From IMG/VR virus record IMGVR_UViG_3300011888_000006: a stretch of 11,688 bases of DNA. One strand, 5' to 3'. A program made the translations under genes and the position numbers. Of the stretch, positions 1-11,688 are shown piece by piece. Position 1 is the stretch's first letter. Each line of letters opens with the position of its first letter. Origin of the DNA: a virus. Taxonomy: Duplodnaviria; Heunggongvirae; Uroviricota; Caudoviricetes. Under the pieces are notes generated by a model that was not told where the DNA came from, did no database searches, and saw only the letters and a program-made list of their open reading frames with translations.

Positions 1-66
1 TTTTTTGATTTCAGAATTAGCCTGACGGGCAATGCTGCGAAGGGCGTTTTCCTGCTGAGGTGTCAT
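1..66 (-). CDS. Hypothetical protein, 5' end only (first 22 codons MTPQQENALRSIARQANSEIKK; gene runs off the window start)
   Basis: Minus-strand ATG at 66..64 overlaps the TGA of the upstream micro-ORF (ATGA arrangement); frame stays open to position 1. No recognisable family from 22 residues. Confidence 0.35.
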   Translation of the reverse strand, partial: MTPQQENALRSIARQANSEIKK

Positions 67-146
67 TGAACAAGTCCCATGTCGGCAAGCATAAGCACAC
101 AGAATATGAAGCCCGCTGCCAGAAAAATGCATTCCGTGGTTGTCAT
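63..146 (-). CDS. 27-aa hydrophobic micro-protein (MTTTECIFLAAGFIFCVLMLADMGLVQ), putative single-pass membrane peptide
   Basis: Below the ORF-track size cutoff. Its ATG (146..144) overlaps the methyltransferase TGA and its TGA (65..63) overlaps the next ATG, so it is sandwiched by two ATGA couplings. Hydrophobic core of about 20 residues. Confidence 0.35.
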   Translation of the reverse strand: MTTTECIFLAAGFIFCVLMLADMGLVQ

Positions 147-700
147 GCAGCCTCCCGACGGGCAAGAATCCTTGAGCCGAACGCCATCAACTCTCCACGA
201 TCAACGGTCGTAAAGTGGCAGTGTGTACGGGGGTATGGGTGCCAGATAATGAGCATCGAGCCTTTATTATTTCCACTGACGGGTTTCTCAGTGAGTGGGT
301 TAATAAATGCCAGTCGTCCTGCCGTGATGAATCTGACCTCACTGGCGGTTTGTATCGCTTCATGAAACCATCCGACAGATGTGTCAGCAGGCAATAACAT
401 TACACATCCCACACTACTGAATTTGTTTTCAGTGGCTGCCTTTTTCACAAAAGGGGAAATATTGCTGTATGGTGGATTCAACCAGACATAACCAGAGGCA
501 TATCCCATTGCTTCAGGCCATGAAGTGGTTAATGTGTTCTGCTCCTGTGAGATAAAAAGCCGACATAGTCGGTTTTTTTCGCTGGCGGCAGCATCAAGTT
601 GAAAAACGAACTCTGCATTAAGCGCAGCAAAAATCTCTGGTGGTGTACGCCAGCTGTCGCGATGTTCGGCAGGAGTATTGCTTCCGGTGAAATCAGTCAT
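143..700 (-). CDS. Phage-type DNA N6-adenine methyltransferase (Dam-like orphan MTase)
   Basis: 185-aa ORF with the catalytic NPPY motif (WLNPPYS) and an N-terminal WRTPPEIF segment typical of phage Dam-family methyltransferases. Sits downstream of exo in the leftward operon. Confidence 0.85.
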   Translation of the reverse strand: MTDFTGSNTPAEHRDSWRTPPEIFAALNAEFVFQLDAAASEKNRLCRLFISQEQNTLTTSWPEAMGYASGYVWLNPPYSNISPFVKKAATENKFSSVGCVMLLPADTSVGWFHEAIQTASEVRFITAGRLAFINPLTEKPVSGNNKGSMLIIWHPYPRTHCHFTTVDRGELMAFGSRILARREAA

Positions 701-850
701 ACAGCCCCCGTTTATTATTTATCTCCTCAGCCAGCCGCTGTGCTTTCAGGGGATTTCGGATAACAGAAAGGCCGGGAAATATCCAGCCTCGCTTTGTAAC
801 GGAGTAGACGAAAGTGATCGTGCCTACCCGGATATTATCGTGAGGATGCT

Positions 851-1531
851 TCATCGCCATTGCTCCCCAAATACAAAACCAATTTCAGCCAGTGCCTCGT
901 CCATTTTTTCGATGAACTCCGGCACCATCTCGTCAAAACTCGCCATGTACTTTTCATCCCGCTCAACCACGACATAATGCAGGCCTTCACGCTTCATACG
1001 CGGGTCATAGTTGGCAAAGTACCAGGCATCTTTTCGCGTCACCCACATGCTGTACTGCACCTGGGCCATGTAAGCCGACTTTATGGCCTCGAAACCACCG
1101 AGCCGGAACTTCATGAAATCCCGGGAGGTAAACGGGCATTTCAGCTCAAGGCCATTGCCGTCACTGCATAAACCATCGGGAGAGCAGGCGGTGCGCATAC
1201 TTTCGTCGCGATAGATGATCGGGGATTCAATAACATTTACGCCGGAAGTGAACTCAAACAGGGTTCTGGCGTCGTTCTCGTACTGTTTTCCCCAGGCCAG
1301 CGCTTTAGCGTTAACTTCCGGAGCCACACCGGTGCAAACCTCAGCCAGCAGGGTGTGGAAGTAGGACATTTTCATGTCAGGCCACTTCTTTCCTGATCGG
1401 GGCTTTGCTATCACGTTGTGAACTTCTGAAGCGGTGATGACGCCGAGCCGTAATTTGTGCCATGCATCATCCCCCTGTTCGACAGCTCTCACGTCGATCC
1501 CGGTACGCTGCAGGATAATGTCCGGTGTCAT
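851..1531 (-). CDS. exo: Lambda-type exonuclease (Red alpha)
   Basis: 226-aa translation ([40 protein letters not shown]...GEQWR) is near-identical to phage lambda Exo as I recall it. Its start overlaps the bet stop (ATGA). Confidence 0.95.
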
Positions 1532-2313
1532 GCTGCCACCTTCTGCTCAGTGGCTTTCTGTTTCAGGAATCCAAGAGCTTTCACTGCTTCGGCCTGTGTC
1601 AGTTCTGACGATGCGCGAATGTCGCGGCGAAATATCTGGGAACAGAGCGGCAATAAGTCGTCATCCCATGTTTTATCCAGGGCGATCAGCAGAGTGTTAA
1701 TCTCCTGCATGGTTTCATCGTTAACCGGAGTGATGTCGCGTTCTGGCTGACGTTCTGCAGTGTATGCAGTATTTTCGACAATGCGCTCGGCTTCATCCTT
1801 GTCATAGATACCAGCAAATCCGAAGGCCAGACGGGCACACTGAATCATGGCTTTATGCCGTAACATCCGTTTGGGATGCGACTGCCACGGCCCCGTGATT
1901 TCTCTGCCTTCGCGGGTTTTGAATGGTTCGCGGCGGCATTCATCCATCCATTCGGTAACGCAGATCGGATGATTACGGTCCTTGCGGTAAATCCGGCATG
2001 TACAGGATTCATTGTCCTGCTCAAAGTCCATGCCATCAAACTGCTGGTTTTCATTGATGATGCGGGACCAGCCATCAACGCCCACCACCGGAACAATGCC
2101 GTTCTGCTTATCAGGGAAGGCGTAAATTTCTTTCGTCCACGGATTAAGGCCGTACTGGTTGGCGACGATCAACAATGCGATGAACTGCGCATCGCTGGCA
2201 TCACCTTTAAATGCCGTCTGGCGAAGAGTGGTGATCAGTTCCTGTGGGTCGACAGAATCCATGCCGACACGTTCAGCCAGCTTCCCTGCCAGCGTTGCGA
2301 GTGCTGTACTCAT
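1528..2313 (-). CDS. bet: Lambda-type single-strand annealing protein (Red beta)
   Basis: 261-aa translation ([48 protein letters not shown]...) matches lambda Bet from memory; gam-bet-exo order conserved. Confidence 0.95.
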
Positions 2314-2318
2314 CCGTT

Positions 2319-2615
2319 TTATACCTCTGAATCAATATCAAACTGGTGGTGAGCAATGGTTTCAACCATGTACCGGATGTGTTCTGCCATGCGCTCCTGA
2401 AACTCAACATCGTCATCAAACGCACGGGTAATGGCTTTTTTGCAGGCCCCGCAGCGTTGCAAATGATCGATACAGAGTGATTCAAACAGGTGCTGTGGAA
2501 GACCTTTTTCCATGTCGTCTGCCAGTTCTGCCTCTTTCTCTTCACGGGCGATCTGCTGGTAGTGACGCGCCCAGCTTTGAGCCTCAAGACGATCCTGAAT
2601 GTAATAAGCGTTCAT
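2319..2615 (-). CDS. gam: Gam, RecBCD inhibitor (short 98-aa form)
   Basis: Translation [52 protein letters not shown]...IDSEV matches the lambda GamS region. AGGAG lies 7 nt upstream of the ATG on the minus strand. Confidence 0.9.
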
Positions 2616-2690
2616 GGCTGAACTCCTGAAAATGGCTGTGAAAATATCGCCCGCGAAATGCCAGGCTGATTAGGAAAACAGGAAAGGGGA

Positions 2691-2981
2691 TTAGTGATTC
2701 AGGCCGTTACCGCGTCCGTCGAGGAAAACTTCCACGAGCAAATCACGGGTATAAGTGCGCTCGATGCTGCGATGCAGATATAGCCGTCCGCGTAAATTAG
2801 CTGATGCAGTCCAGGTACCATCTTTGTGTTTGACCAGCATTCCTGGCATGACCGCACCTCGATTAACGGTCTGAGTTCCGTAATGTTGATGAACCATAAA
2901 AACTCCTGCCCGTAAGCTGGGCTGCTGAACATATAGAGACTTCTGCGCGTATTCAGGCGGTGGATGGCCGCCGGTTGTCAT
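2691..2981 (-). CDS. Hypothetical protein in the kil/cIII position of the leftward operon (96 aa; alternative 68-aa form starting at 2897)
   Basis: Open frame between the leftward promoter and gam. The internal ATG at 2897 has a strong AGGAG 6 nt upstream, while the ATG at 2981 has only GAGG at 10 nt. No family recognised; not Arg-rich at the N terminus, so not N-like. Confidence 0.45.
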
Positions 2982-3123
2982 AACTAAGCCGCCTCGTTGA
3001 AGCGACTGAGGTATGAGGTGTTGAGTTGAGTTGATTTCAGCTGGTCACACCGACGTTCACGCGTCCGTTTCACCCCTCGCACTCCCCGGAGCCTGCCGAA
3101 ATTCAAGCTGCGGATCTAAGCGG

Positions 3124-3175
3124 TCATCGCAACGGTGAATCAGGTAGTTGCCGTATCGTTGTGTTGTTGCGATGA
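3124..3175 (-). promoter_or_regulatory. 10-bp perfect inverted repeat (3124-3133 / 3166-3175) with a 32-nt loop at the 5' end of the leftward early transcript
   Basis: TCATCGCAAC ... GTTGCGATGA read directly from the sequence. It lies immediately downstream of the predicted leftward promoter, so it would be the first about 50 nt of that RNA. Confidence 0.4.
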
Positions 3176-3240
3176 ACTTATTTAAAACTATAGTTGTTTT
3201 ATCGTCAACAACAAAAGTTGTTTTATTGGTTGTTTTAGAT
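3176..3240 (-). promoter_or_regulatory. Leftward early promoter (pL-like) with operator-like AACAAC/GTTGTT repeats (OL-like)
   Basis: On the minus strand TTGACG-17-TTAAAT (plus 3203-3208 and 3180-3185). The spacer ATAAAACAACTATAGTT is almost the same as the spacer of the rightward promoter. Inverted repeat AACAAC-AAAA-GTTGTT at 3207-3222, and GTTGTTTT recurs at 3193, 3217 and 3229. Confidence 0.5.
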
Positions 3241-3358
3241 ATAACTGGTTGTATTTAGGATGGATTTATTTTGTGACTTGAATCGCATAGCGATAACTGA
3301 AGCGAGGTTATGGTGGTTTTTTTAACGGTGTGTGTGATGAGGGGAGGGCAAAAGAAAA

Positions 3359-3376
3359 CCCGGCACGGTGACCGGG
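3359..3376 (-). terminator. Candidate intrinsic terminator downstream of the repressor gene
   Basis: CCCGG/CCGGG stem with an 8-nt loop; on the minus strand it is followed by TTTTCTTTTG. The stem is short (5 bp), so this is tentative. Confidence 0.3.
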
Positions 3377-3497
3377 ATTCTTACGCCGTTAGGTAAAGAT
3401 ATTATTGCGGTGGCTTAATATTACTACCTAGAGCAAAGATAGGAATTAGTTCTTTACTGAATGAGCACAATGCCCAGTTGATAATTTTTAATTGGTA

Positions 3498-4187
3498 CTA
3501 CCCATGCTTCCTATATGTCTGCGGCATGCTCCCAATAACCTTACCGAAGATGAACACCCGGTTCATCTCGTCTTTCTCGATCGGGTCCCACGGTGAGTAG
3601 CTTTTGTTATCAGAGATGACCAGCAGCTTATCCTTCATCATTTGCAGGCGCTTTACATGGGCTGTGTCGTCGTACAGAAACGCATAGATACCATCACCGT
3701 CGAAAGATTTAACTGTGATATCAACGAACAGCAGATCACCTGGTTCGATCGTTCCTGACATGCTGTCACCACGCACGTTAATGATGCGGATATTTTCCGC
3801 CTTCCTACCATCGAACATGTGACGAGCATCGTCAAACGAGTACTCAACCGAGCGTAGAACTTCTACAAACTCACGGTTGATGACTCCCGGCCCAGCACTG
3901 ACTTCTATATCAAGAACGTCAATCTTGAAGTATTTGGAATGGCTGACAGTTGATTGTATTGGTTGCACTGTACTGTCTGACATATTTCCAACGCCAGAAG
4001 ATAACCATTCTGCGCGCACACCCAAAGCGTTCGCGATCTCCACGATTTTAGTTGTTTGATTAGCTTTCCCTGTTTCGATTTTCTGAATAGCAGCCTGGCT
4101 AACCCCGACCAAATCCCCAAGCGCCTTTTGTGTAAGGCCTCGCGCTAATCTGGCTTCTTTAAGTCTTTCTGAGAGTGTTGTTTTCAT
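3498..4187 (-). CDS. cI: CI-like prophage repressor (N-terminal HTH, C-terminal S24 LexA-like autopeptidase)
   Basis: HTH segment LTQKALGDLVGVSQAAIQKIE, then an Ala-Gly site (VSAGPG), a GDSM serine motif and a HVKRL lysine, the LexA/CI self-cleavage signature. I place the start at the MKTTLSERL ATG (4187) rather than the track's 4253 start, because a TTGATG-17-TACATT promoter ends 6 nt before it. Confidence 0.85.
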   Translation of the reverse strand: MKTTLSERLKEARLARGLTQKALGDLVGVSQAAIQKIETGKANQTTKIVEIANALGVRAEWLSSGVGNMSDSTVQPIQSTVSHSKYFKIDVLDIEVSAGPGVINREFVEVLRSVEYSFDDARHMFDGRKAENIRIINVRGDSMSGTIEPGDLLFVDITVKSFDGDGIYAFLYDDTAHVKRLQMMKDKLLVISDNKSYSPWDPIEKDEMNRVFIFGKVIGSMPQTYRKHG

Positions 4188-4291
4188 AGTCCAAATGTAC
4201 AACCAAGGTTTTATTCCATCAAACGAAAATGGTTGTTGACTAAAAACAACCATAGTTTTAATCTTGATTCAAATTAACCACGGAGGTTGTT
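4188..4291. promoter_or_regulatory. Immunity switch: divergent pRM-like and pR-like promoters with operator palindromes
   Basis: 25-bp perfect palindrome ATGGTTGTT-GACTAAA-AACAACCAT at 4229-4253, overlapping a rightward TTGACT -35 (4236-4241). Leftward TTGATG (4217-4222) -17- TACATT (4194-4199) ends 6 nt before the repressor ATG. Confidence 0.6.
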
Positions 4292-4522
4292 ATGAACCCA
4301 GCTATCAAAACAGCGATCAATATCGTTGGTTCACAAAAGAAACTGGGCGCTGCTTGCGAAGTTTCACAGCAGGCCGTCTATAAGTGGCTTCACAACAAAG
4401 CAAAGGTATCCCCTGAACATGTCGGCAGCATTGTTACGGCTACTGGTGGAGTAGTGAAGGCATACCAGATTCGCCCGGATCTTCCGAAGTTGTTTCCACA
4501 CACCGAAAAGAACGCAGCTTAA
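4292..4522 (+). CDS. cro: Cro-like small HTH regulator (YdaS/Cro family)
   Basis: 76 aa, first gene of the rightward operon. HTH segment LGAACEVSQQAVYKW; GGAGG 6 nt upstream of the ATG. Confidence 0.8.
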   Translation: MNPAIKTAINIVGSQKKLGAACEVSQQAVYKWLHNKAKVSPEHVGSIVTATGGVVKAYQIRPDLPKLFPHTEKNAA

Positions 4523-4591
4523 ATTTCCATTTCACGCTCTTTAACAATAAGCAATCAACTTAACAGTCAATTCAAACTAAAGGAGTCAATT

Positions 4592-5131
4592 ATGCAACCA
4601 CTTACATACCAACAGACTAGCGGATTTAGCCCGACTGCGGTGATAAATCGTTCTCAAACAAAACAGGTGCCAGGCCACGAAAAAATCCGTGATGCCGTCC
4701 GCGCCTGGTCGGCTGTAGATAATCAGGATGTCGTTGCCACACTCATTGTGAATGAGTATCGGGAGCAGGGCGGCGGCACCATCGATTTCCCTGATGATGT
4801 CAGCCGTGCACGCCAGAAGCTGTTCCGCTTCCTCGATAACAAATTCGATTCTGAAAAATACCGAAATAACGTGCGTGAACTGACCCCGGCAATTCTGGCG
4901 GTACTACCGCTGGAATATCGCGGTTACCTGGTTGAGCAGGATAGCTTCATGGCTAGGTTGGCTGAAATGGAAAAGGAACTCAGTGAGGCAAAACAGGCTG
5001 TCATTCTCAACGCACCACGCCACCAGAAACTGAAGGAAATTAGTGAAGGTATTGTGTCGATGTTTCGTGTGGACCCAGATCTGGCTGGTCCATTGATGGC
5101 GATGGTTACTACCATGCTGGGGGCGATATGA
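4592..5131 (+). CDS. YdaT-family protein in the cII position (likely CII functional analogue)
   Basis: 179 aa directly after cro, with AGGAG 7 nt upstream. Segments EYREQGGG and LTPAILAVLP resemble Rac YdaT as I recall it; family assignment is from memory only. Confidence 0.6.
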   Translation: MQPLTYQQTSGFSPTAVINRSQTKQVPGHEKIRDAVRAWSAVDNQDVVATLIVNEYREQGGGTIDFPDDVSRARQKLFRFLDNKFDSEKYRNNVRELTPAILAVLPLEYRGYLVEQDSFMARLAEMEKELSEAKQAVILNAPRHQKLKEISEGIVSMFRVDPDLAGPLMAMVTTMLGAI

Positions 5132-5217
5132 CAGGTTCAGAAATGGCGAAAGCCGGTCTGCTGGAACAGAACCGACTTTCAGGTGCAAATCGTAACACAC
5201 TCATTGCGGGAGGAATT

Positions 5218-6164
5218 ATGGCAAACACTGCTGAGATATTCAATTTTCCAGTGCCGGATGCGGCACAAAAGGAGCCGCGCGTGGCAGATCTCGATGATGG
5301 TTATACGCGCATTGCAAATGAGTTGCTGGAAGCTGTGATGCTGGCCGGATTAACACAGCACCAGCTTCTGGTCTTTCTGGCTGTCATGCGCAAAACATAT
5401 GGCTTTAATAAAAAACTGGATTGGGTTAGCAACGAGCAACTTTCCGAATTAACCGGGATATTGCCGCACAAGTGTTCTGCTGCAAAAAGTGTTCTGGTAA
5501 AGCGTGGGATTTTTATTCAGAGCGGGCGGAATACCGGCATTAATAATGTGGTCAGTGAATGGTCAACATTACCCGAATCAGGTAAGAAAAATAAAGTTTA
5601 CCTGAAAGAGGTAAATTTACCTGAATCAGGTAAAAAAAGTTTACCCAAATCAGGTAAAGGCGTTTACCCGAATCAGGTAAACACAAAAGACAAACTAACA
5701 AAAGACAATATAAAACCTTTTTCGTCCGAGAATTCTGGCGAATCCTCNNNNNNNNNNAATCCTCTGACCAACCAGAAAACGATCTTCCTGTGGTGAAACC
5801 GGATGCTGCAATTCAGAGCGGCAGCAAGTGGGGGACAGCAGAAGACCTGACCGCCGCAGAGTGGATGTTTGACATGGTGAAGACCATCGCGCCATCAGCC
5901 AGAAAACCGAATTTTGCAGGGTGGGCTAACGATATCCGCCTGATGCGTGAACGTGACGGACGTAACCACCGCGACATGTGCGTGCTGTTCCGCTGGGCAT
6001 GCCAGGACAACTTCTGGTCCGGTAACGTGCTAAGTCCGGCCAAACTCCGCGACAAGTGGACCCAGCTCGAAATCAACCGTAACAAGCAACAGGCAGGCAT
6101 GATAGCCAGCAAACCAAAACTCGACCTGACAAACACTGACTGGATTTACGGGGTGGATTTATGA
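5218..6164 (+). CDS. O: Replication initiator O (lambda O family), interrupted by a 10-N scaffold gap
   Basis: N terminus MANTAEIFNFP...VADLDDGY and C terminus ...WANDIRLMRERDGRNHRDMCVLFRWACQDNFWSGNVLSPAKL...DLTNTDWIYGVDL match lambda O from memory. GGGAGG upstream of 5218. The two track ORFs (5128..5796 and 5790..6164) are the same gene split by the gap. Confidence 0.8.
5569..5680 (+). repeat. Replication origin iterons inside O: five 17-bp palindromic repeats TTACC(C/T)(G/A)AA(T/A)(C/G)AGGTAA, followed by an AT-rich tract
   Basis: Copies at 5569-5585, 5598-5614 (degenerate), 5617-5633, 5641-5657 and 5664-5680, then an A/T-rich stretch at 5681-5730. Same layout as lambda ori inside O. Confidence 0.7.
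5748..5757. other. Assembly gap (10 N) with 7-bp overlapping flanks
   Basis: Left flank ends AATCCTC and right flank begins AATCCTC. Collapsing the overlap removes 17 nt and puts both halves of O in one frame. Confidence 0.9.
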
Positions 6165-6862
6165 AAAACATCGCCGCACAGATGGTTAACTTTGACCGTG
6201 AGCAGATGCGTCGGATCGCCAACAACATGCTGGAACAGTACGACGAAAAGCCGCAGGTACAGCAGGTAGCGCAGATCATCAACGGTGTGTTCAGCCAGTT
6301 ACTGGCAACTTTCCCGGCGAGTCTGGCTAACCGTGACCAGAACGAACTGAACGAAATCCGCCGCCAGTGGGTTCTGGCTTTCCGGGAAAACGGGATCACC
6401 ACAATGGAACAGGTTAACGCAGGAATGCGCGTAGCCCGTCGGCAGAATCGACCATTTCTGCCATCACCCGGGCAGTTTGTTGCATGGTGCCGGGAAGAAG
6501 CATCCGTTATCGCCGGACTGCCAAACGTCAGCGAGCTGGTTGATATGGTTTACGAGTATTGCCGGAAGCGTGGCCTGTATCCGGATGCAGAGTCTTATCC
6601 GTGGAAATCGAACGCGCATTACTGGTTGGTTACCAACTTGTACCAGAACATGCGGGCCAATGCGCTGACTGACGCGGAATTACGGCGCAAGGCTGCCGAT
6701 GAACTGACCTGTATGACAGCGCGAATTAACCGTGGTGAGACGATACCTGAACCAGTAAAACAACTTCCTGTTATGGGCGGTAGACCTCTAAATCGTGCAC
6801 AGGCTCTGGCGAAGATCGCAGAAATTAAAGCTAAGTTCGGACTGAAAGGAGCAAGTGTATGA
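6161..6862 (+). CDS. P: Replication protein P (DnaB helicase loader)
   Basis: 233-aa translation MKNIAAQMVNFDREQMRRIANNMLEQYDEKPQVQQVAQIING... is near-identical to lambda P from memory. ATGA overlap with the O stop. Confidence 0.95.
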   Translation: MKNIAAQMVNFDREQMRRIANNMLEQYDEKPQVQQVAQIINGVFSQLLATFPASLANRDQNELNEIRRQWVLAFRENGITTMEQVNAGMRVARRQNRPFLPSPGQFVAWCREEASVIAGLPNVSELVDMVYEYCRKRGLYPDAESYPWKSNAHYWLVTNLYQNMRANALTDAELRRKAADELTCMTARINRGETIPEPVKQLPVMGGRPLNRAQALAKIAEIKAKFGLKGASV

Positions 6863-7260
6863 CGGGCAAAGAGGCAATTATTCATTACCTGGGGACGCAT
6901 AAGAGCTTCTGTGCACAGGACGTTGCCGCGGTAACAGGTGCAACCGTAACCAGCATAAATCAGGCTGCGGCTAAAATGGCGCGGGCAGGAATCCTGGTCG
7001 TTGATGGTAAGGTCTGGCGAACGGTGTATTACCGGTTTGCTACCAAGGAAGAACGGGAAGGAAAGATGNNNNNNNNNNNNNNNNNNNNNNNNNNNNNNNN
7101 NNNNNNNNNNNNNNNNNNNNNNNNNTATTACCGGTTCGCTACCAGAGAAGAACGGGAAGGAAAGGTGAGCACGAATCTGATTTTTAAGGAGTGTCGCCAG
7201 AGTGCCGCGATGAAACGGGTATTGAGGGTATATAAAAGAACATCAATGGGTACACAATGA
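6859..7260 (+). CDS. ren: Ren, interrupted by a 45-N scaffold gap with duplicated flanks
   Basis: MTGKEAIIHYLGTHKSFCAQDVAAVTGATVTSINQAAAKMARAGILVVDGKVWRTVYYRFAT... matches lambda Ren from memory. ATGA overlap with the P stop. The apparent length of 133 aa is inflated by the gap and flank duplication. Confidence 0.75.
   Translation: MTGKEAIIHYLGTHKSFCAQDVAAVTGATVTSINQAAAKMARAGILVVDGKVWRTVYYRFATKEEREGKMXXXXXXXXXXXXXXXXXXXYYRFATREEREGKVSTNLIFKECRQSAAMKRVLRVYKRTSMGTQ
7069..7113. other. Assembly gap (45 N) flanked by an imperfect 42-bp duplication
   Basis: Left TATTACCGGTTTGCTACCAAGGAAGAACGGGAAGGAAAGATG versus right TATTACCGGTTCGCTACCAGAGAAGAACGGGAAGGAAAGGTG, 4 mismatches. Removing gap plus overlap (87 nt) keeps ren in frame. 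Confidence 0.9.
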
Positions 7261-7277
7261 TGAAACAGGTGAGTTGA

Positions 7278-7312
7278 GTTCAAACTGTAGTACAATTCTC
7301 TCCAGTTTGAAC
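7278..7312. repeat. 10-bp perfect inverted repeat (GTTCAAACTG-N15-CAGTTTGAAC) between ren and emrE
   Basis: Read directly from the sequence. Lies 16 nt upstream of the emrE ATG, at the left edge of the AT-rich insertion. Confidence 0.3.
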
Positions 7313-7327
7313 AGGAAAGAATATGTT

Positions 7328-7660
7328 ATGAACCCTTATATTTATCTTGGTGGTGCAATACTTGCAGAGGTCATTGGTACAACCTTAATGAAGTTTTCAG
7401 AAGGTTTTACACGGTTATGGCCATCTGTTGGTACAATTATTTGTTATTGTGCATCATTCTGGTTATTAGCTCAGACGCTGGCTTATATTCCTACAGGGAT
7501 TGCTTATGCTATCTGGTCAGGAGTCGGTATTGTCCTGATTAGCTTACTATCATGGGGGTTTTTCGGCCAACGGCTGGACCTGCCAGCCGTTATAGGCATG
7601 ATGTTGATTTGTGCCGGTGTGTTGGTTATTAATTTATTGTCACGAAGCACACCACATTAA
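7328..7660 (+). CDS. emrE: EmrE, small multidrug resistance (SMR) efflux transporter
   Basis: 110-aa translation MNPYIYLGGAILAEVIGTTLMKFSEGFTRLWPSVGTIICYCASFWLLAQTLAYIPTGIAYAIWSGVGIVLISLLSWGFFGQRLDL... matches E. coli EmrE from memory. The track's longer 7274 start is probably not used. Confidence 0.95.
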   Translation: MNPYIYLGGAILAEVIGTTLMKFSEGFTRLWPSVGTIICYCASFWLLAQTLAYIPTGIAYAIWSGVGIVLISLLSWGFFGQRLDLPAVIGMMLICAGVLVINLLSRSTPH

Positions 7661-7904
7661 AAATAATTTCTTTTAAAAGACTGCAATATGGCGGTTCATA
7701 TCTTTACATGGGCCGCTTTTGTTAATGTTTTTAGTTTTTGTGTATTCTTTTGTGCCTTCAAGATTATTGCGTAAGCAAATTGCAATACGATTATTGTTGT
7801 ATATTCAAGATAGTGTGATCGTAATTGTCTTTTTAAATAAAAATTAAACAAAAATTATATCTCACCACTAAGGTTTATAAAAGCATACGTTAGCAGGTGT
7901 CACC

Positions 7905-9431
7905 ATGAAAAAAGCCATAGCATATATGCGATTTTCATCACTAGGTCAGATGTCTGGCGACTCATTAAACCGACAGAGAAGACTTATTGCTGAATGGTTA
8001 AAGGTAAATAGTGATTATTATCTTGATACCATAACATATGAAGATTTAGGATTAAGTGCATTCAAAGGAAAGCATGCACAATCAGGAGCTTTTTCGGAAT
8101 TTTTAGATGCTATAGAGCATGGTTATATATTGCCAGGAACTACATTGTTAGTTGAAAGTCTGGACAGACTTTCAAGAGAAAAAGTCGGTGAAGCGATTGA
8201 ACGTCTGAAATTGATTTTGAATCACGGTATTGATGTTATAACTCTTTGCGACAATACAGTCTATAATATTGACTCTTTGAATGAGCCATATTCATTAATA
8301 AAAGCCATACTTATAGCACAAAGGGCAAATGAAGAAAGCGAGATAAAGTCAAGTCGGGTTAAATTATCATGGAAGAAAAAACGGCAGGATGCACTGGAAT
8401 CAGGTACGATTATGACGGCGTCTTGTCCGAGATGGCTCTCCTTAGATGACAAAAGAACGGCTTTTGTTCCAGACCCCGACAGGGTGAAAACTATTGAGCT
8501 AATTTTTAAACTCAGGATGGAAAGGCGCTCATTGAATGCAATAGCCAAGTATTTAAATGATCATGCTGTAAAGAATTTCTCAGGAAAAGAAAGTGCATGG
8601 GGGCCTTCTGTAATTGAAAAATTATTAGCGAATAAAGCTCTGATAGGTATATGCGTACCTTCATATCGTGCAAGAGGGAAAGGGATAAGTGAAATCGCTG
8701 GCTATTATCCCAGAGTCATATCAGATGATTTGTTTTACGCTGTACAGGAAATTCGGTTGGCACCTTTTGGTATTAGCAATAGTAGCAAGAATCCTATGCT
8801 AATAAATCTACTTCGAACAGTTATGAAGTGTGAGGCTTGTGGTAATACCATGATTGTTCATGCGGTATCTGGAAGTTTGCATGGCTATTATGTTTGTCCG
8901 ATGAGAAGATTACATCGATGTGACAGGCCATCAATAAAGAGAGATTTGGTTGATTATAATATCATTAATGAATTGCTTTTTAATTGTAGCAAAATTCAAC
9001 CAGTTGAAAACAAGAAAGATGCTAATGAAACGTTAGAGTTAAAAATTATTGAGCTTCAGATGAAAATTAATAATTTAATCGTTGCATTGTCTGTCGCGCC
9101 TGAAGTTACCGCTATAGCAGAGAAAATAAGACTATTAGATAAGGAATTACGAAGAGCTTTGGTATCATTGAAAACTTTGAAGAGTAAAGGTGTAAATTCA
9201 TTCAGTGATTTTTATGCTATTGACTTAACCAGTAAAAATGGACGAGAGTTATGCCGTACACTTGCCTATAAAATATTCGAAAAAATCATAATTAATACGG
9301 ATAATAAAACCTGTGATATCTATTTTATGAATGGCATTGTTTTTAAACACTATCCTTTAATGAAAGTAATATCCGCCCAGCAGGCGATAAGTGCTCTCAA
9401 ATATATGGTTGATGGTGAGGTTTATTTTTGA
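7905..9431 (+). CDS. ybcK: Large serine recombinase (YbcK-like)
   Basis: 508 aa. N-terminal resolvase-type motif AYMRFSSLGQ with the catalytic serine, then a recombinase domain and a Cys-rich zinc ribbon (CEACGNT...YYVCP...HRCD). Strongly AT-rich coding sequence compared with the flanking genes. Confidence 0.85.
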   Translation: MKKAIAYMRFSSLGQMSGDSLNRQRRLIAEWLKVNSDYYLDTITYEDLGLSAFKGKHAQSGAFSEFLDAIEHGYILPGTTLLVESLDRLSREKVGEAIERLKLILNHGIDVITLCDNTVYNIDSLNEPYSLIKAILIAQRANEESEIKSSRVKLSWKKKRQDALESGTIMTASCPRWLSLDDKRTAFVPDPDRVKTIELIFKLRMERRSLNAIAKYLNDHAVKNFSGKESAWGPSVIEKLLANKALIGICVPSYRARGKGISEIAGYYPRVISDDLFYAVQEIRLAPFGISNSSKNPMLINLLRTVMKCEACGNTMIVHAVSGSLHGYYVCPMRRLHRCDRPSIKRDLVDYNIINELLFNCSKIQPVENKKDANETLELKIIELQMKINNLIVALSVAPEVTAIAEKIRLLDKELRRALVSLKTLKSKGVNSFSDFYAIDLTSKNGRELCRTLAYKIFEKIIINTDNKTCDIYFMNGIVFKHYPLMKVISAQQAISALKYMVDGEVYF

Positions 9432-9784
9432 GTAATAATCACTTTTTCAACCGTGCTATGGTATGAAAGTAAAGTAACTACTATGATATTAACTATCGAG
9501 CAAGAATATCCCCAGGCACTCAACAGGGCGCAGGTCAACGTGAATCGGTCATGACACGACACCGATTTTGCGGAATCAATGTTGCTTATGAATACAACAT
9601 CCCGCTTAGTACATGTTCAACACATCAGCAAATTTTGAACTGGGTGTGGCACTTAACTGAAAAAACATGGATGACACAAAATGTTACTCGTCGCTTCATT
9701 GAAGTAGCTTGTGGATATCACAAGCTAGACTATCGCCAATGATATTCAATTTTTGATTTTTTAGTATCAACCTTCCATAATAAT

Positions 9785-9813
9785 GTCACCGGAGCTTGAA
9801 CAACTCCGGTGAC
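9785..9813 (+). terminator. Stable hairpin (10-bp perfect stem GTCACCGGAG/CTCCGGTGAC, 9-nt loop), possible terminator closing the insertion
   Basis: Read directly from the sequence. Followed by TTCTGCGCATTT, which is only moderately U-rich, so terminator function is uncertain. Confidence 0.25.
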
Positions 9814-9837
9814 TTCTGCGCATTTAAGGGGACTTAA

Positions 9838-9936
9838 ATGCGACCACAATCTGAACTCCTTACCTTGTCACAGATGCAGAAATGCACCTGCGATGTCTTG
9901 CATCCAGCGTTTGATCTCTGCGGAGGTGAAGCGTGA
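9838..9936 (+). CDS. ylcH: 32-aa micro-ORF ([32 protein letters not shown]), YlcH-like small protein
   Basis: Below the track cutoff. AGGGGA 7 nt upstream; its TGA overlaps the GTG start of ybcN (GTGA). Same position and size as DLP12 ylcH by recollection. Confidence 0.4.
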
Positions 9937-10388
9937 ACCTCCCACAAGATGGCATCAAATTACATCGCGGTAACTTCACCGCTGTCGGTCAGCAGATCCA
10001 GACTTATCTGGAAGACGGCAAATGCTTTCGCATGGTTCTTAAACCGTGGCGCGAGAGACGCAGTCTTTCCCAGAATGCACTCAGCCACATGTGGTACAGC
10101 GAAATCAGTGAATACCTCATCAGCAGGGGGAAATCGTTCGCTACTTCAGCATGGGTAAAAGATGCTCTCAAACACACATACCTCGGTTATGAAACCAAGG
10201 ACCTGGTTGATGTCGTAACCGGCGAAATCACTACTATCCAGTCGTTACGCCATACCTCCGATCTTGGTACCGGAGAGATGTATGTCTTCCTGTGTAAGGT
10301 TGAAGCCTGGGCGGTGAATATTGGCTGCCACCTGACTATTCCGCAGAGCTGCGAGTTCCAGCTGCTCCGTGACAAGCAGGAGGCGTAA
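9933..10388 (+). CDS. ybcN: YbcN, NinB-family DNA-binding (base-flipping) protein
   Basis: 151 aa with GTG start and GGAGG upstream. Segment [17 protein letters not shown] resembles the NinB family; matches DLP12 YbcN by recollection. Confidence 0.85.
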
Positions 10389-10558
10389 TGGCTACACCGC
10401 TTATTCGTGTCATGAACGGACACATCTACAGAGTATCAAATCGTCGTAAGCGTAAGCCTGAGCCGAAGCCATCCGAAATACCAACACTGCTCGGATATAC
10501 CGCTAGCCTGGTTGATAAAAAATGGTTGCGACTGGCAGCAAGGAGGAATCATGGCTGA
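10388..10558 (+). CDS. ninE: NinE-family small protein (56 aa)
   Basis: [56 protein letters not shown]. Its ATG overlaps the ybcN TAA (TAATG). Below the ORF-track size cutoff. Confidence 0.75.
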   Translation: MATPLIRVMNGHIYRVSNRRKRKPEPKPSEIPTLLGYTASLVDKKWLRLAARRNHG

Positions 10559-10841
10559 TTTGAGAAAAGCAGCGCGTGGTCGGGAATGCCAGGTAAGAAT
10601 CCCTGGCGTATGTAATGGCAATTCTGAAACGTCTGTACTGGCACATATCCGGCTGGCTGGATTGTGCGGTACCGGTATCAAACCGCCAGACCTGATTGCC
10701 ACCATTGCATGTTCTGCCTGCCACGACGAAATCGACCGCCGCACACATTTTGTCGATGCTGCATATGCAAAAGAATGCGCGCTGGAAGGTATGGCGAGAA
10801 CACAGGTTATTTGGCTGAAAGAGGGGGTTATTAAGGCGTGA
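10551..10841 (+). CDS. ybcO: YbcO-family protein (96 aa; putative nuclease, Cys-rich)
   Basis: Start [23 protein letters not shown] with AGGAGG 5 nt upstream. I use the internal ATG at 10551 rather than the track's 10512. Overlaps the ninE stop. Confidence 0.8.
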
Positions 10842-11200
10842 ATACCTACAGCATCACATTACCCTGGCCTCCGAGCAATAATCGCTATTACCGCCATAAT
10901 CGCGGGCGCACGCACATCAGCGCAGAAGGGCAGGCATACCGCGATAACGTCACCCGAATCATTAAAAACGCAATGCTGGATATCGGCCTGGCTATGCCAG
11001 TGAAAATCCGTATTGAGTGCCACATGCCGGATCGCCGTCGCCGTGACCTGGATAATCTGCAAAAAGCCGCTTTTGACGCACTCACCAAAGCAGGTTTCTG
11101 GCTGGATGATGCTCAGGTCGTTGATTACCGCGTTGTGAAGATGCCTGTTACCAAAGGTGGGAGGCTGGAACTGACCATCACCGAAATGGGGAATGAATGA
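10838..11200 (+). CDS. rusA: RusA Holliday-junction resolvase
   Basis: 120-aa translation [38 protein letters not shown]... matches E. coli RusA from memory. GTG start overlapping the ybcO stop (GTGA). Confidence 0.95.
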
Positions 11201-11337
11201 TGTTTGAGTTTTATATGGCAGAACTTCTTCGCCACCGCTGGGGGCATCTGCGCTTATATCGTTTCCCCGGTTCTGTTTTGACCGATTACCGAATACTGAA
11301 GAATTACGCCAAAACCCTGACAGGAGCAGGAGTATGA
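11197..11337 (+). CDS. ylcG: YlcG-like 46-aa protein
   Basis: [46 protein letters not shown]; start overlaps the rusA stop (ATGA). Below the ORF-track cutoff. Confidence 0.55.
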
Positions 11338-11422
11338 AGTCAGAGATAACAATCAACTAATACTGTTTTGTTGATTTTTGCTTGTAATTGGCGTTCTGGT
11401 CTGATTTTTGTGGAGTAAGTTG

Positions 11423-11688
11423 ATGCGTGATATTCAGATGGTTTTAGAGCGTTGGGGCAGTTGGGCTGCGAACGACAGTTCCGGAGTCGATTACTCACAT
11501 ATAGCGGCTGGCTTTAAGGGGTTGTTACCACCAACAGGGAAGTCTCGTCCATCCTGTACTGACGACGACGGGCTGATTATTGAGAGCTGCCTGGCACGTT
11601 TGCAGAAGAAGAAGCCAAATGAGCATTCTCTGCTCGTGGCGCATTACCTGTATGGCATTTCCAAGCGCAGCATAGCGCGAGCCAGGAA
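11423..11688 (+). CDS. quuD: Late-gene antiterminator Q (phage 82 / QuuD type), 5' part only; continues past the window end
   Basis: MRDIQMVLERWGSWAANDSSGVDYSHIAAGFKGLLPP... matches 82-type Q / DLP12 QuuD N terminus by recollection. GGAG upstream. No stop within the window. Confidence 0.8.
   Translation, partial: MRDIQMVLERWGSWAANDSSGVDYSHIAAGFKGLLPPTGKSRPSCTDDDGLIIESCLARLQKKKPNEHSLLVAHYLYGISKRSIARAR

Follow-up and report, generated by a model that had tools for sequence, protein, structure and literature searches.

The closest described relatives of the locus are DLP12-type lambdoid prophages. The complete genomes MEI003 (NZ_CP071263) and O157:H7 493/89 (NZ_CP038412) carry the same DLP12-type arrangement as the locus, and the phages PhiR34_1 and Lambda_4C10/4A7 likewise share it. 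Inducible phages with the ren-emrE-ybcK arrangement are represented in the phage collection by PhiR34_1, 4A7, and Perceval. The marker of this arrangement on the 3' side of ren is emrE, a multidrug efflux gene of the SMR family, which is carried as cargo and, as in DLP12, is flanked by ren and ybcK. A second form of ren, the lambda type (96 aa; WP_000145926 / WP_000145927; ...ATKEEREGKMSTNL...), has another C-terminus and is found without emrE. Genomes that matched a query covering O-P-ren-emrE held the module in a median of 2 places, and multiple copies of it are therefore normal. RM14723 carries both ren allele types, in different prophages, which bears out the remark of a first-pass annotation of this DNA that lambdoid prophages are often multi-copy.

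The window, which is the whole stretch of 11,688 nt that was analyzed (IMG/VR record IMGVR_UViG_3300011888_000006), was compared with these systems. Between positions 1 and 10313, its identity to MEI003 was 99.98-100%. The gene order, which was derived from the RefSeq annotation of near-identical complete genomes, related phage records, and Pfam, is dam-like methylase, exo, bet, gam, kil, S24 (cI-like) repressor, cro-like gene, YdaT-domain gene, O, P, ren, and emrE, followed on the 3' side of emrE by ybcK, ybcN, ninE, ybcO, rusA, ylcG, and the start of a Q gene. The window contains exactly two N-runs, one of 10 N (5748-5757) and one of 57 N (7069-7125), and is probably a scaffold of three short-read contigs, namely A (1-5747), B (5758-7068), and C (7126-11688). 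Sequence comparison points to a single DLP12-type lambdoid prophage of E. coli as the source of all three. The features around the two N-runs are as follows.

5128 to 5747, plus strand: 5' part of O, end of contig A; annotated 'replication protein' in MEI003; includes the ori iterons
5741 to 5747, unstranded: left copy of the 7-nt overlap AATCCTC; exact match to the right copy
5748 to 5757, unstranded: 10-N scaffold gap; true distance -7 nt, contig A ending at position 6156 of the MEI003 locus and contig B starting at 6150
5758 to 5764, unstranded: right copy of the 7-nt overlap AATCCTC, start of contig B; 7/7 nt identical
5758 to 6164, plus strand: 3' part of O; the 339-aa O obtained after removal of 17 nt is identical to MEI003 O
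6161 to 6862, plus strand: P, 233 aa, identical to MEI003 P; Pfam Phage_lambda_P is recorded on the 233-aa product of locus L007
6859 to 7068, plus strand: 5' part of ren, end of contig B; identical to MEI003 up to 7037
7006 to 7037, unstranded: 32-nt stretch common to DLP12-type and lambda-type ren, from allele comparison
7027 to 7068, unstranded: left copy of the 42-nt overlap; 38/42 nt match the right copy
7038 to 7068, plus strand: putative foreign tail of contig B, 31 nt (...ATKEEREGKM); matches the lambda-type ren allele
7069 to 7125, unstranded: 57-N scaffold gap; true distance -42 nt, contig B projecting to position 7460 of the MEI003 locus and contig C starting at 7419
7126 to 7167, unstranded: right copy of the 42-nt overlap, start of contig C; identical to MEI003 and to loci L002, L007-L010, and L013
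7126 to 7260, plus strand: 3' part of ren, DLP12 type (...ATREEREGKVSTNL...TSMGTQ*); the collapsed 100-aa Ren is identical to that of MEI003
7328 to 7660, plus strand: emrE; Pfam PF00893, E = 2e-35; annotated emrE in MEI003 and locus L002

The window has the parts of a lambda-type replication module, with O containing internal iterons, an overlapping P, and then ren, and the RefSeq annotation agrees. Five iteron copies resembling TTACCCGAATCAGGTAA were found between 5569 and 5685 inside O at a spacing of 19-29 nt, and on their 3' side, up to 5712, comes an A/T-rich stretch that contains a tandem repeat of 15 nt. The iterons and the A/T-rich stretch are the expected lambda-type origin inside O. 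The domain Phage_rep_O of Pfam is recorded on the corresponding 339-aa O product of GCA_051153545.1 (locus L007). The first gap interrupts O about 60 nt past the ori iterons, and O as written runs out of frame after the 10 N and then reaches a stop. Other lambdoid O genes are similar to that of the window only from about 5681, just past the iterons and near the first contig break.

Each N-run is bordered by a direct repeat. The 7-nt copies around the gap in O match exactly, and the 42-nt copies around the gap in ren differ at four positions (7038, 7046, 7047, and 7066). In a simulation that drew separated positions of the window as random junctions, a suffix/prefix overlap of at least 7 nt arose by chance in 32 of 300,000 draws (~1e-4), and an overlap of at least 30 nt with at most 10% mismatch in 0 of 300,000 (below 3e-6). 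Neither flanking repeat is expected by chance. The first-pass annotation had reported both the 10-N run in O with its identical AATCCTC flanks and the 42-bp duplication with four mismatches around the gap in ren, and both were recovered here, the latter as 7027-7068 against 7126-7167. Its coordinates need correction at two points: the run in ren, given there as 45 N with a boundary at 7113, was miscounted by 12, and the end of the affected region, placed at 7160, falls short of the right repeat copy, which reaches 7167.

Next, the sequence was collapsed by taking out each gap together with one repeat copy (17 and 99 nt). More than 1,300 complete E. coli genomes contain the collapsed sequence without a break. 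Of 5,426 complete E. coli genomes, 1,340 had 80% or more of the query 4592-7660 in one place, and the corresponding interval of the best-matching ones is 2,953 nt long, which equals 3,069 - 17 - 99. Contigs A, B, and C, each aligned separately to MEI003, abut with overlaps of 7 nt (positions 6150-6156 of the MEI003 locus) and 42 nt (positions 7419-7460). The collapsed junctions, an 84-mer for ren and an 80-mer for O, occur exactly in complete genomes, with 788 and 959 records, respectively, in the bands of at least 99% identity. The collapsed sequence encodes O (339 aa), P (233 aa), and Ren (100 aa) without any difference from the proteins of MEI003. The uninterrupted reference sequence and the restored O, P, and Ren thus indicate that both gaps are "negative" scaffold gaps, i.e., unmerged contig overlaps. 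The same had been proposed for both N-runs from the letters of the window, and the 2,953-nt span, the reference overlaps of 7 and 42 nt, and the restored proteins agree with it. The accompanying claims about reading frames also hold, as collapsing the 7-bp flanks (17 nt) gives a single O frame of 339 aa, and removing gap plus overlap in ren (57 + 42 = 99 nt, or 33 codons) keeps the frame and gives the 100-aa Ren.

The four mismatches of the 42-nt overlap were assigned by comparing ren alleles. The final 31 nt of contig B contain all four variants (7038 T, 7046-7047 AG, and 7066 A). The lambda-type ren equals the window over 7006-7068, all four variant bases included, but departs from it before 7006, and on the 3' side it is unlike the right contig. 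The lambda-type alleles of loci L004-L006 are identical to the window over this interval and differ at 7005, 7002, 7000, and further upstream, where the window carries DLP12-type bases. The 54-mer 7015-7068 was found exactly in many complete genomes, Nissle 1917, RM14723, and E2865 among them, within a lambda-type ren that is followed by ninB and not by emrE. Since the match to the lambda type begins only at 7006 and the match to MEI003 extends to 7037, contig B switches allele within 7006-7037. The foreign part would accordingly amount to the 31 terminal nt that carry the variants, or to as many as 63 nt (7006-7068) with the shared stretch included, and the copy at 7126-7167 would be the authentic ren allele of this prophage. 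The suggestion that the mismatches reflect different ren copies therefore stands in that the tail is exactly lambda-type ren, while the contribution of the other copy shrinks to a chimeric end of 31-63 nt.

Taken together, the window very probably consists of contigs of one DLP12-type prophage with unmerged end overlaps of 7 and 42 nt, in which the tail of contig B comes from a second ren allele. A short-read assembler would have broken the prophage inside the replication module, which is common to other lambdoid elements; the identity of this module to those elements is about 95-97%, with exact runs of up to 339 nt. The end of contig B could then have been extended through the 32-nt identical stretch onto reads of a paralogous ren. 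The scaffolder would have placed the contigs in the right order while leaving the overlaps unmerged and writing N-runs instead, because neither the 7-nt overlap nor the 42-nt overlap with its four mismatches could be merged; the latter stayed unmerged because the last 31 nt of contig B follow the other ren allele. This would have created spurious direct repeats and made O look frameshifted and ren look as if it had gained 33 codons. The tail allele may derive from a further ren copy, carried by a different lambdoid prophage of the genome or by a different strain of the sample. The comparisons show the coordinates, the agreement of the collapsed sequence with the reference, the intact proteins, the restriction of the variants to the tail, and the second allele with its context; from this pattern we infer that a scaffolder wrote the N-runs, how the allele was switched, that B and C are physically joined, and that the second ren copy resides in the genome itself. 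In Velvet and SPAdes, a run of 10 N serves as the minimum or artificial gap; the 10-N run is presumably such a minimum placeholder, and the 57-N run is presumably a distance estimate from paired reads. When the contig ends and the nearest variant sites of other lambdoid copies were compared by hand, no single k among those tried fitted both junctions. No simple de Bruijn-graph repeat boundary matched the contig ends, and the origin of the 31-nt tail was not explained by the k values tried.

The alternative that fares best, although it is improbable, is that contig B is a collapsed two-copy repeat, so that its tail is real in a second prophage and the path A-B-C is still right for the first. 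A 1.3-kb contig with an assembly break at either end is what a repeat typically yields, and 7038, the first variant, is found immediately inside the overlap, at the point where two copies would part. Such a reading asks for a second prophage that is identical over 5758-7037 and then continues into a lambda-type ren 3' end, i.e., a natural recombinant allele, and the chance of this is equally small. However, none of the 5,426 complete E. coli genomes contains the required recombinant 84-mer of contig B exactly (0/5,426), the best match being 97.6%, and the chimeric 72-mer is absent from IMG/VR and from the JGI metagenome contigs. The other lambdoid copies examined also differ from contig B at 28-76 positions, over different sub-stretches. 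The 42-nt variant tail alone had no exact match in the GTDB species-representative genomes. Nothing was recorded for the X-containing Ren ORF in an exact look-up, and look-ups of YbcK and the Dam-like methylase yielded many related assemblies, the source assembly not among them. It is accordingly doubtful, to the same degree, that the tail is a real recombinant ren of a second prophage in the same genome, with a DLP12-type 5' part, a lambda-type 3' part, and the crossover within 7006-7037. If it were, the recombinant ren would be previously unseen and would point to a very recent exchange between resident prophages across the identical 1.3-kb O-P-ren segment.

Slightly less probable still is a scaffold that mis-joins two prophages at ren, with A and B from one and C (the 3' end of ren, emrE, and ybcK onward) from another. 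The four overlap mismatches do show two ren alleles in the reads, the left module (exo to O-P) is found with several different downstream modules in other genomes, and ren modules are multi-copy in many E. coli. Against this, A, B, and C are colinear in MEI003, with 1, 0, and 1 mismatches. Contig A has its single mismatch in 5,747 nt, and MEI003 is its closest genome (100.0% against 99.1% for the next best); contig B is free of mismatches over 5758-7037, and its 4 variants are restricted to the final 31 nt; contig C has one (9032) over 7126-10313. The assembly L007 is likewise colinear with A, B, and C, showing 3 mismatches across 4,332 nt of contig C. The ren sequence of contig B up to 7037 is itself the emrE-linked allele, as the 53-mer 6985-7037 runs into the allele of the right contig, and never into the tail allele, in all eight of the fetched loci that contain it (8/8). 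The near-identity of A, B, and C to MEI003 and L007 up to the junction thus indicates that one prophage type flanks the gap in ren on both sides; the two sides match the same two references and not different best-matching prophages. The idea in the first-pass annotation that everything to the right of this gap could belong to another prophage is not supported, given this colinearity and the constant association of the 53-mer with the right-contig allele in the fetched loci, and the B-C junction is most likely a correct join.

That the repeats are real tandem duplications, of 17 nt in O (leaving a frameshifted pseudogene) and of 99 nt in-frame in ren, with the N-runs as same-length masks or low-quality calls, can hardly be credited: the geometry permits it, the copy spacings being 17 and 99 nt and 99 a multiple of 3, but neither duplication is present in any genome examined, fresh copies would be identical whereas the ren copies differ at 4/42 positions (9.5%) between flanks that are 100% identical to MEI003, the four differences exactly reproduce a known foreign allele, two independent masks would have to fall each precisely between repeat copies, and the gap-spanning pattern had 0 matches in the GTDB representatives, a weak point given that N-to-N matching is uncertain. 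A genuine tandem duplication would be read as continuous base calls through both copies, and the copies in the window are separated by N only.

The preferred reading of one prophage with unmerged contig overlaps concerns the two N-runs; a separate change of similarity was observed at the right end of the window. After about 1 mismatch in 3,188 nt, the stretch 10314-11327 shows 43 mismatches in about 1,000 nt against MEI003 and O157:H7 493/89. This drop covers ybcN, ninE, ybcO, and rusA, and the unrelated assembly L007 stays near-identical there. The drop marks a natural mosaic (recombination) boundary inside contig C and is unconnected with the N-runs. Because the end of contig C (10314-11688) diverges from MEI003, the prophage itself is mosaic. 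The window is nearer to L007 than to MEI003 over 10314-11457, and from about 11458 its Q gene is unlike both. The segment 11423-11688 holds the first part of an antiterminator gene, Q (Pfam PF06530, E = 1e-40), which is cut by the window end and which diverges from MEI003 and L007 from about 11458. In a near-match search, no complete E. coli genome in the collection covered more than 59% of 11300-11688, which suggests that the Q allele here is an uncommon one, located at a mosaic boundary. In ybcK, the window has G at 9032, where MEI003, O157:H7 493/89, and L007 have T; the change is synonymous, and the G is a private SNP of the source strain.

The left arm was also found in other settings. 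The exo-bet-gam-dam module lies beside several different integrases and chromosomal sites (loci L011, L012, L014-L017, L019, and L020), and the cargo between the repressor and kil varies in these loci (HipA-like/DUF3037, DUF6414, ASCH, and others). These varied contexts illustrate the free recombination of the exo-bet-gam-dam module.

In summary, the two N-runs are an assembly artefact in a very common prophage and hold nothing biologically novel. The collapsed sequence, with the allele of the right contig at ren, is the correct one. The scaffold taken at face value would give a frameshifted O, a Ren with 33 additional codons, and 7 + 42 nt of duplicated sequence, and the relevance of this is limited to annotation hygiene. 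A short-read contig that ends in a multi-copy phage module can have a paralogue as the source of its final few tens of bases; taken alone, mismatches in an overlap therefore do not mean that different elements were joined.

Both negative gaps (English et al. 2012, PMC3504050) and false duplications on the two sides of an assembly gap (Ko et al. 2022, PMC9516828) are documented artefacts of assembly. The cases described in both reports resemble the window in that an N-run stands between overlapping contigs and the same sequence is duplicated at both gap edges, and also in that mismatches in the overlap block merging and gene models are disrupted. The difference lies in the origin of the diverged copy, which in the vertebrate cases is usually the other haplotype, whereas in the window it is a paralogous ren allele of another prophage or strain and extends over 31 nt only.
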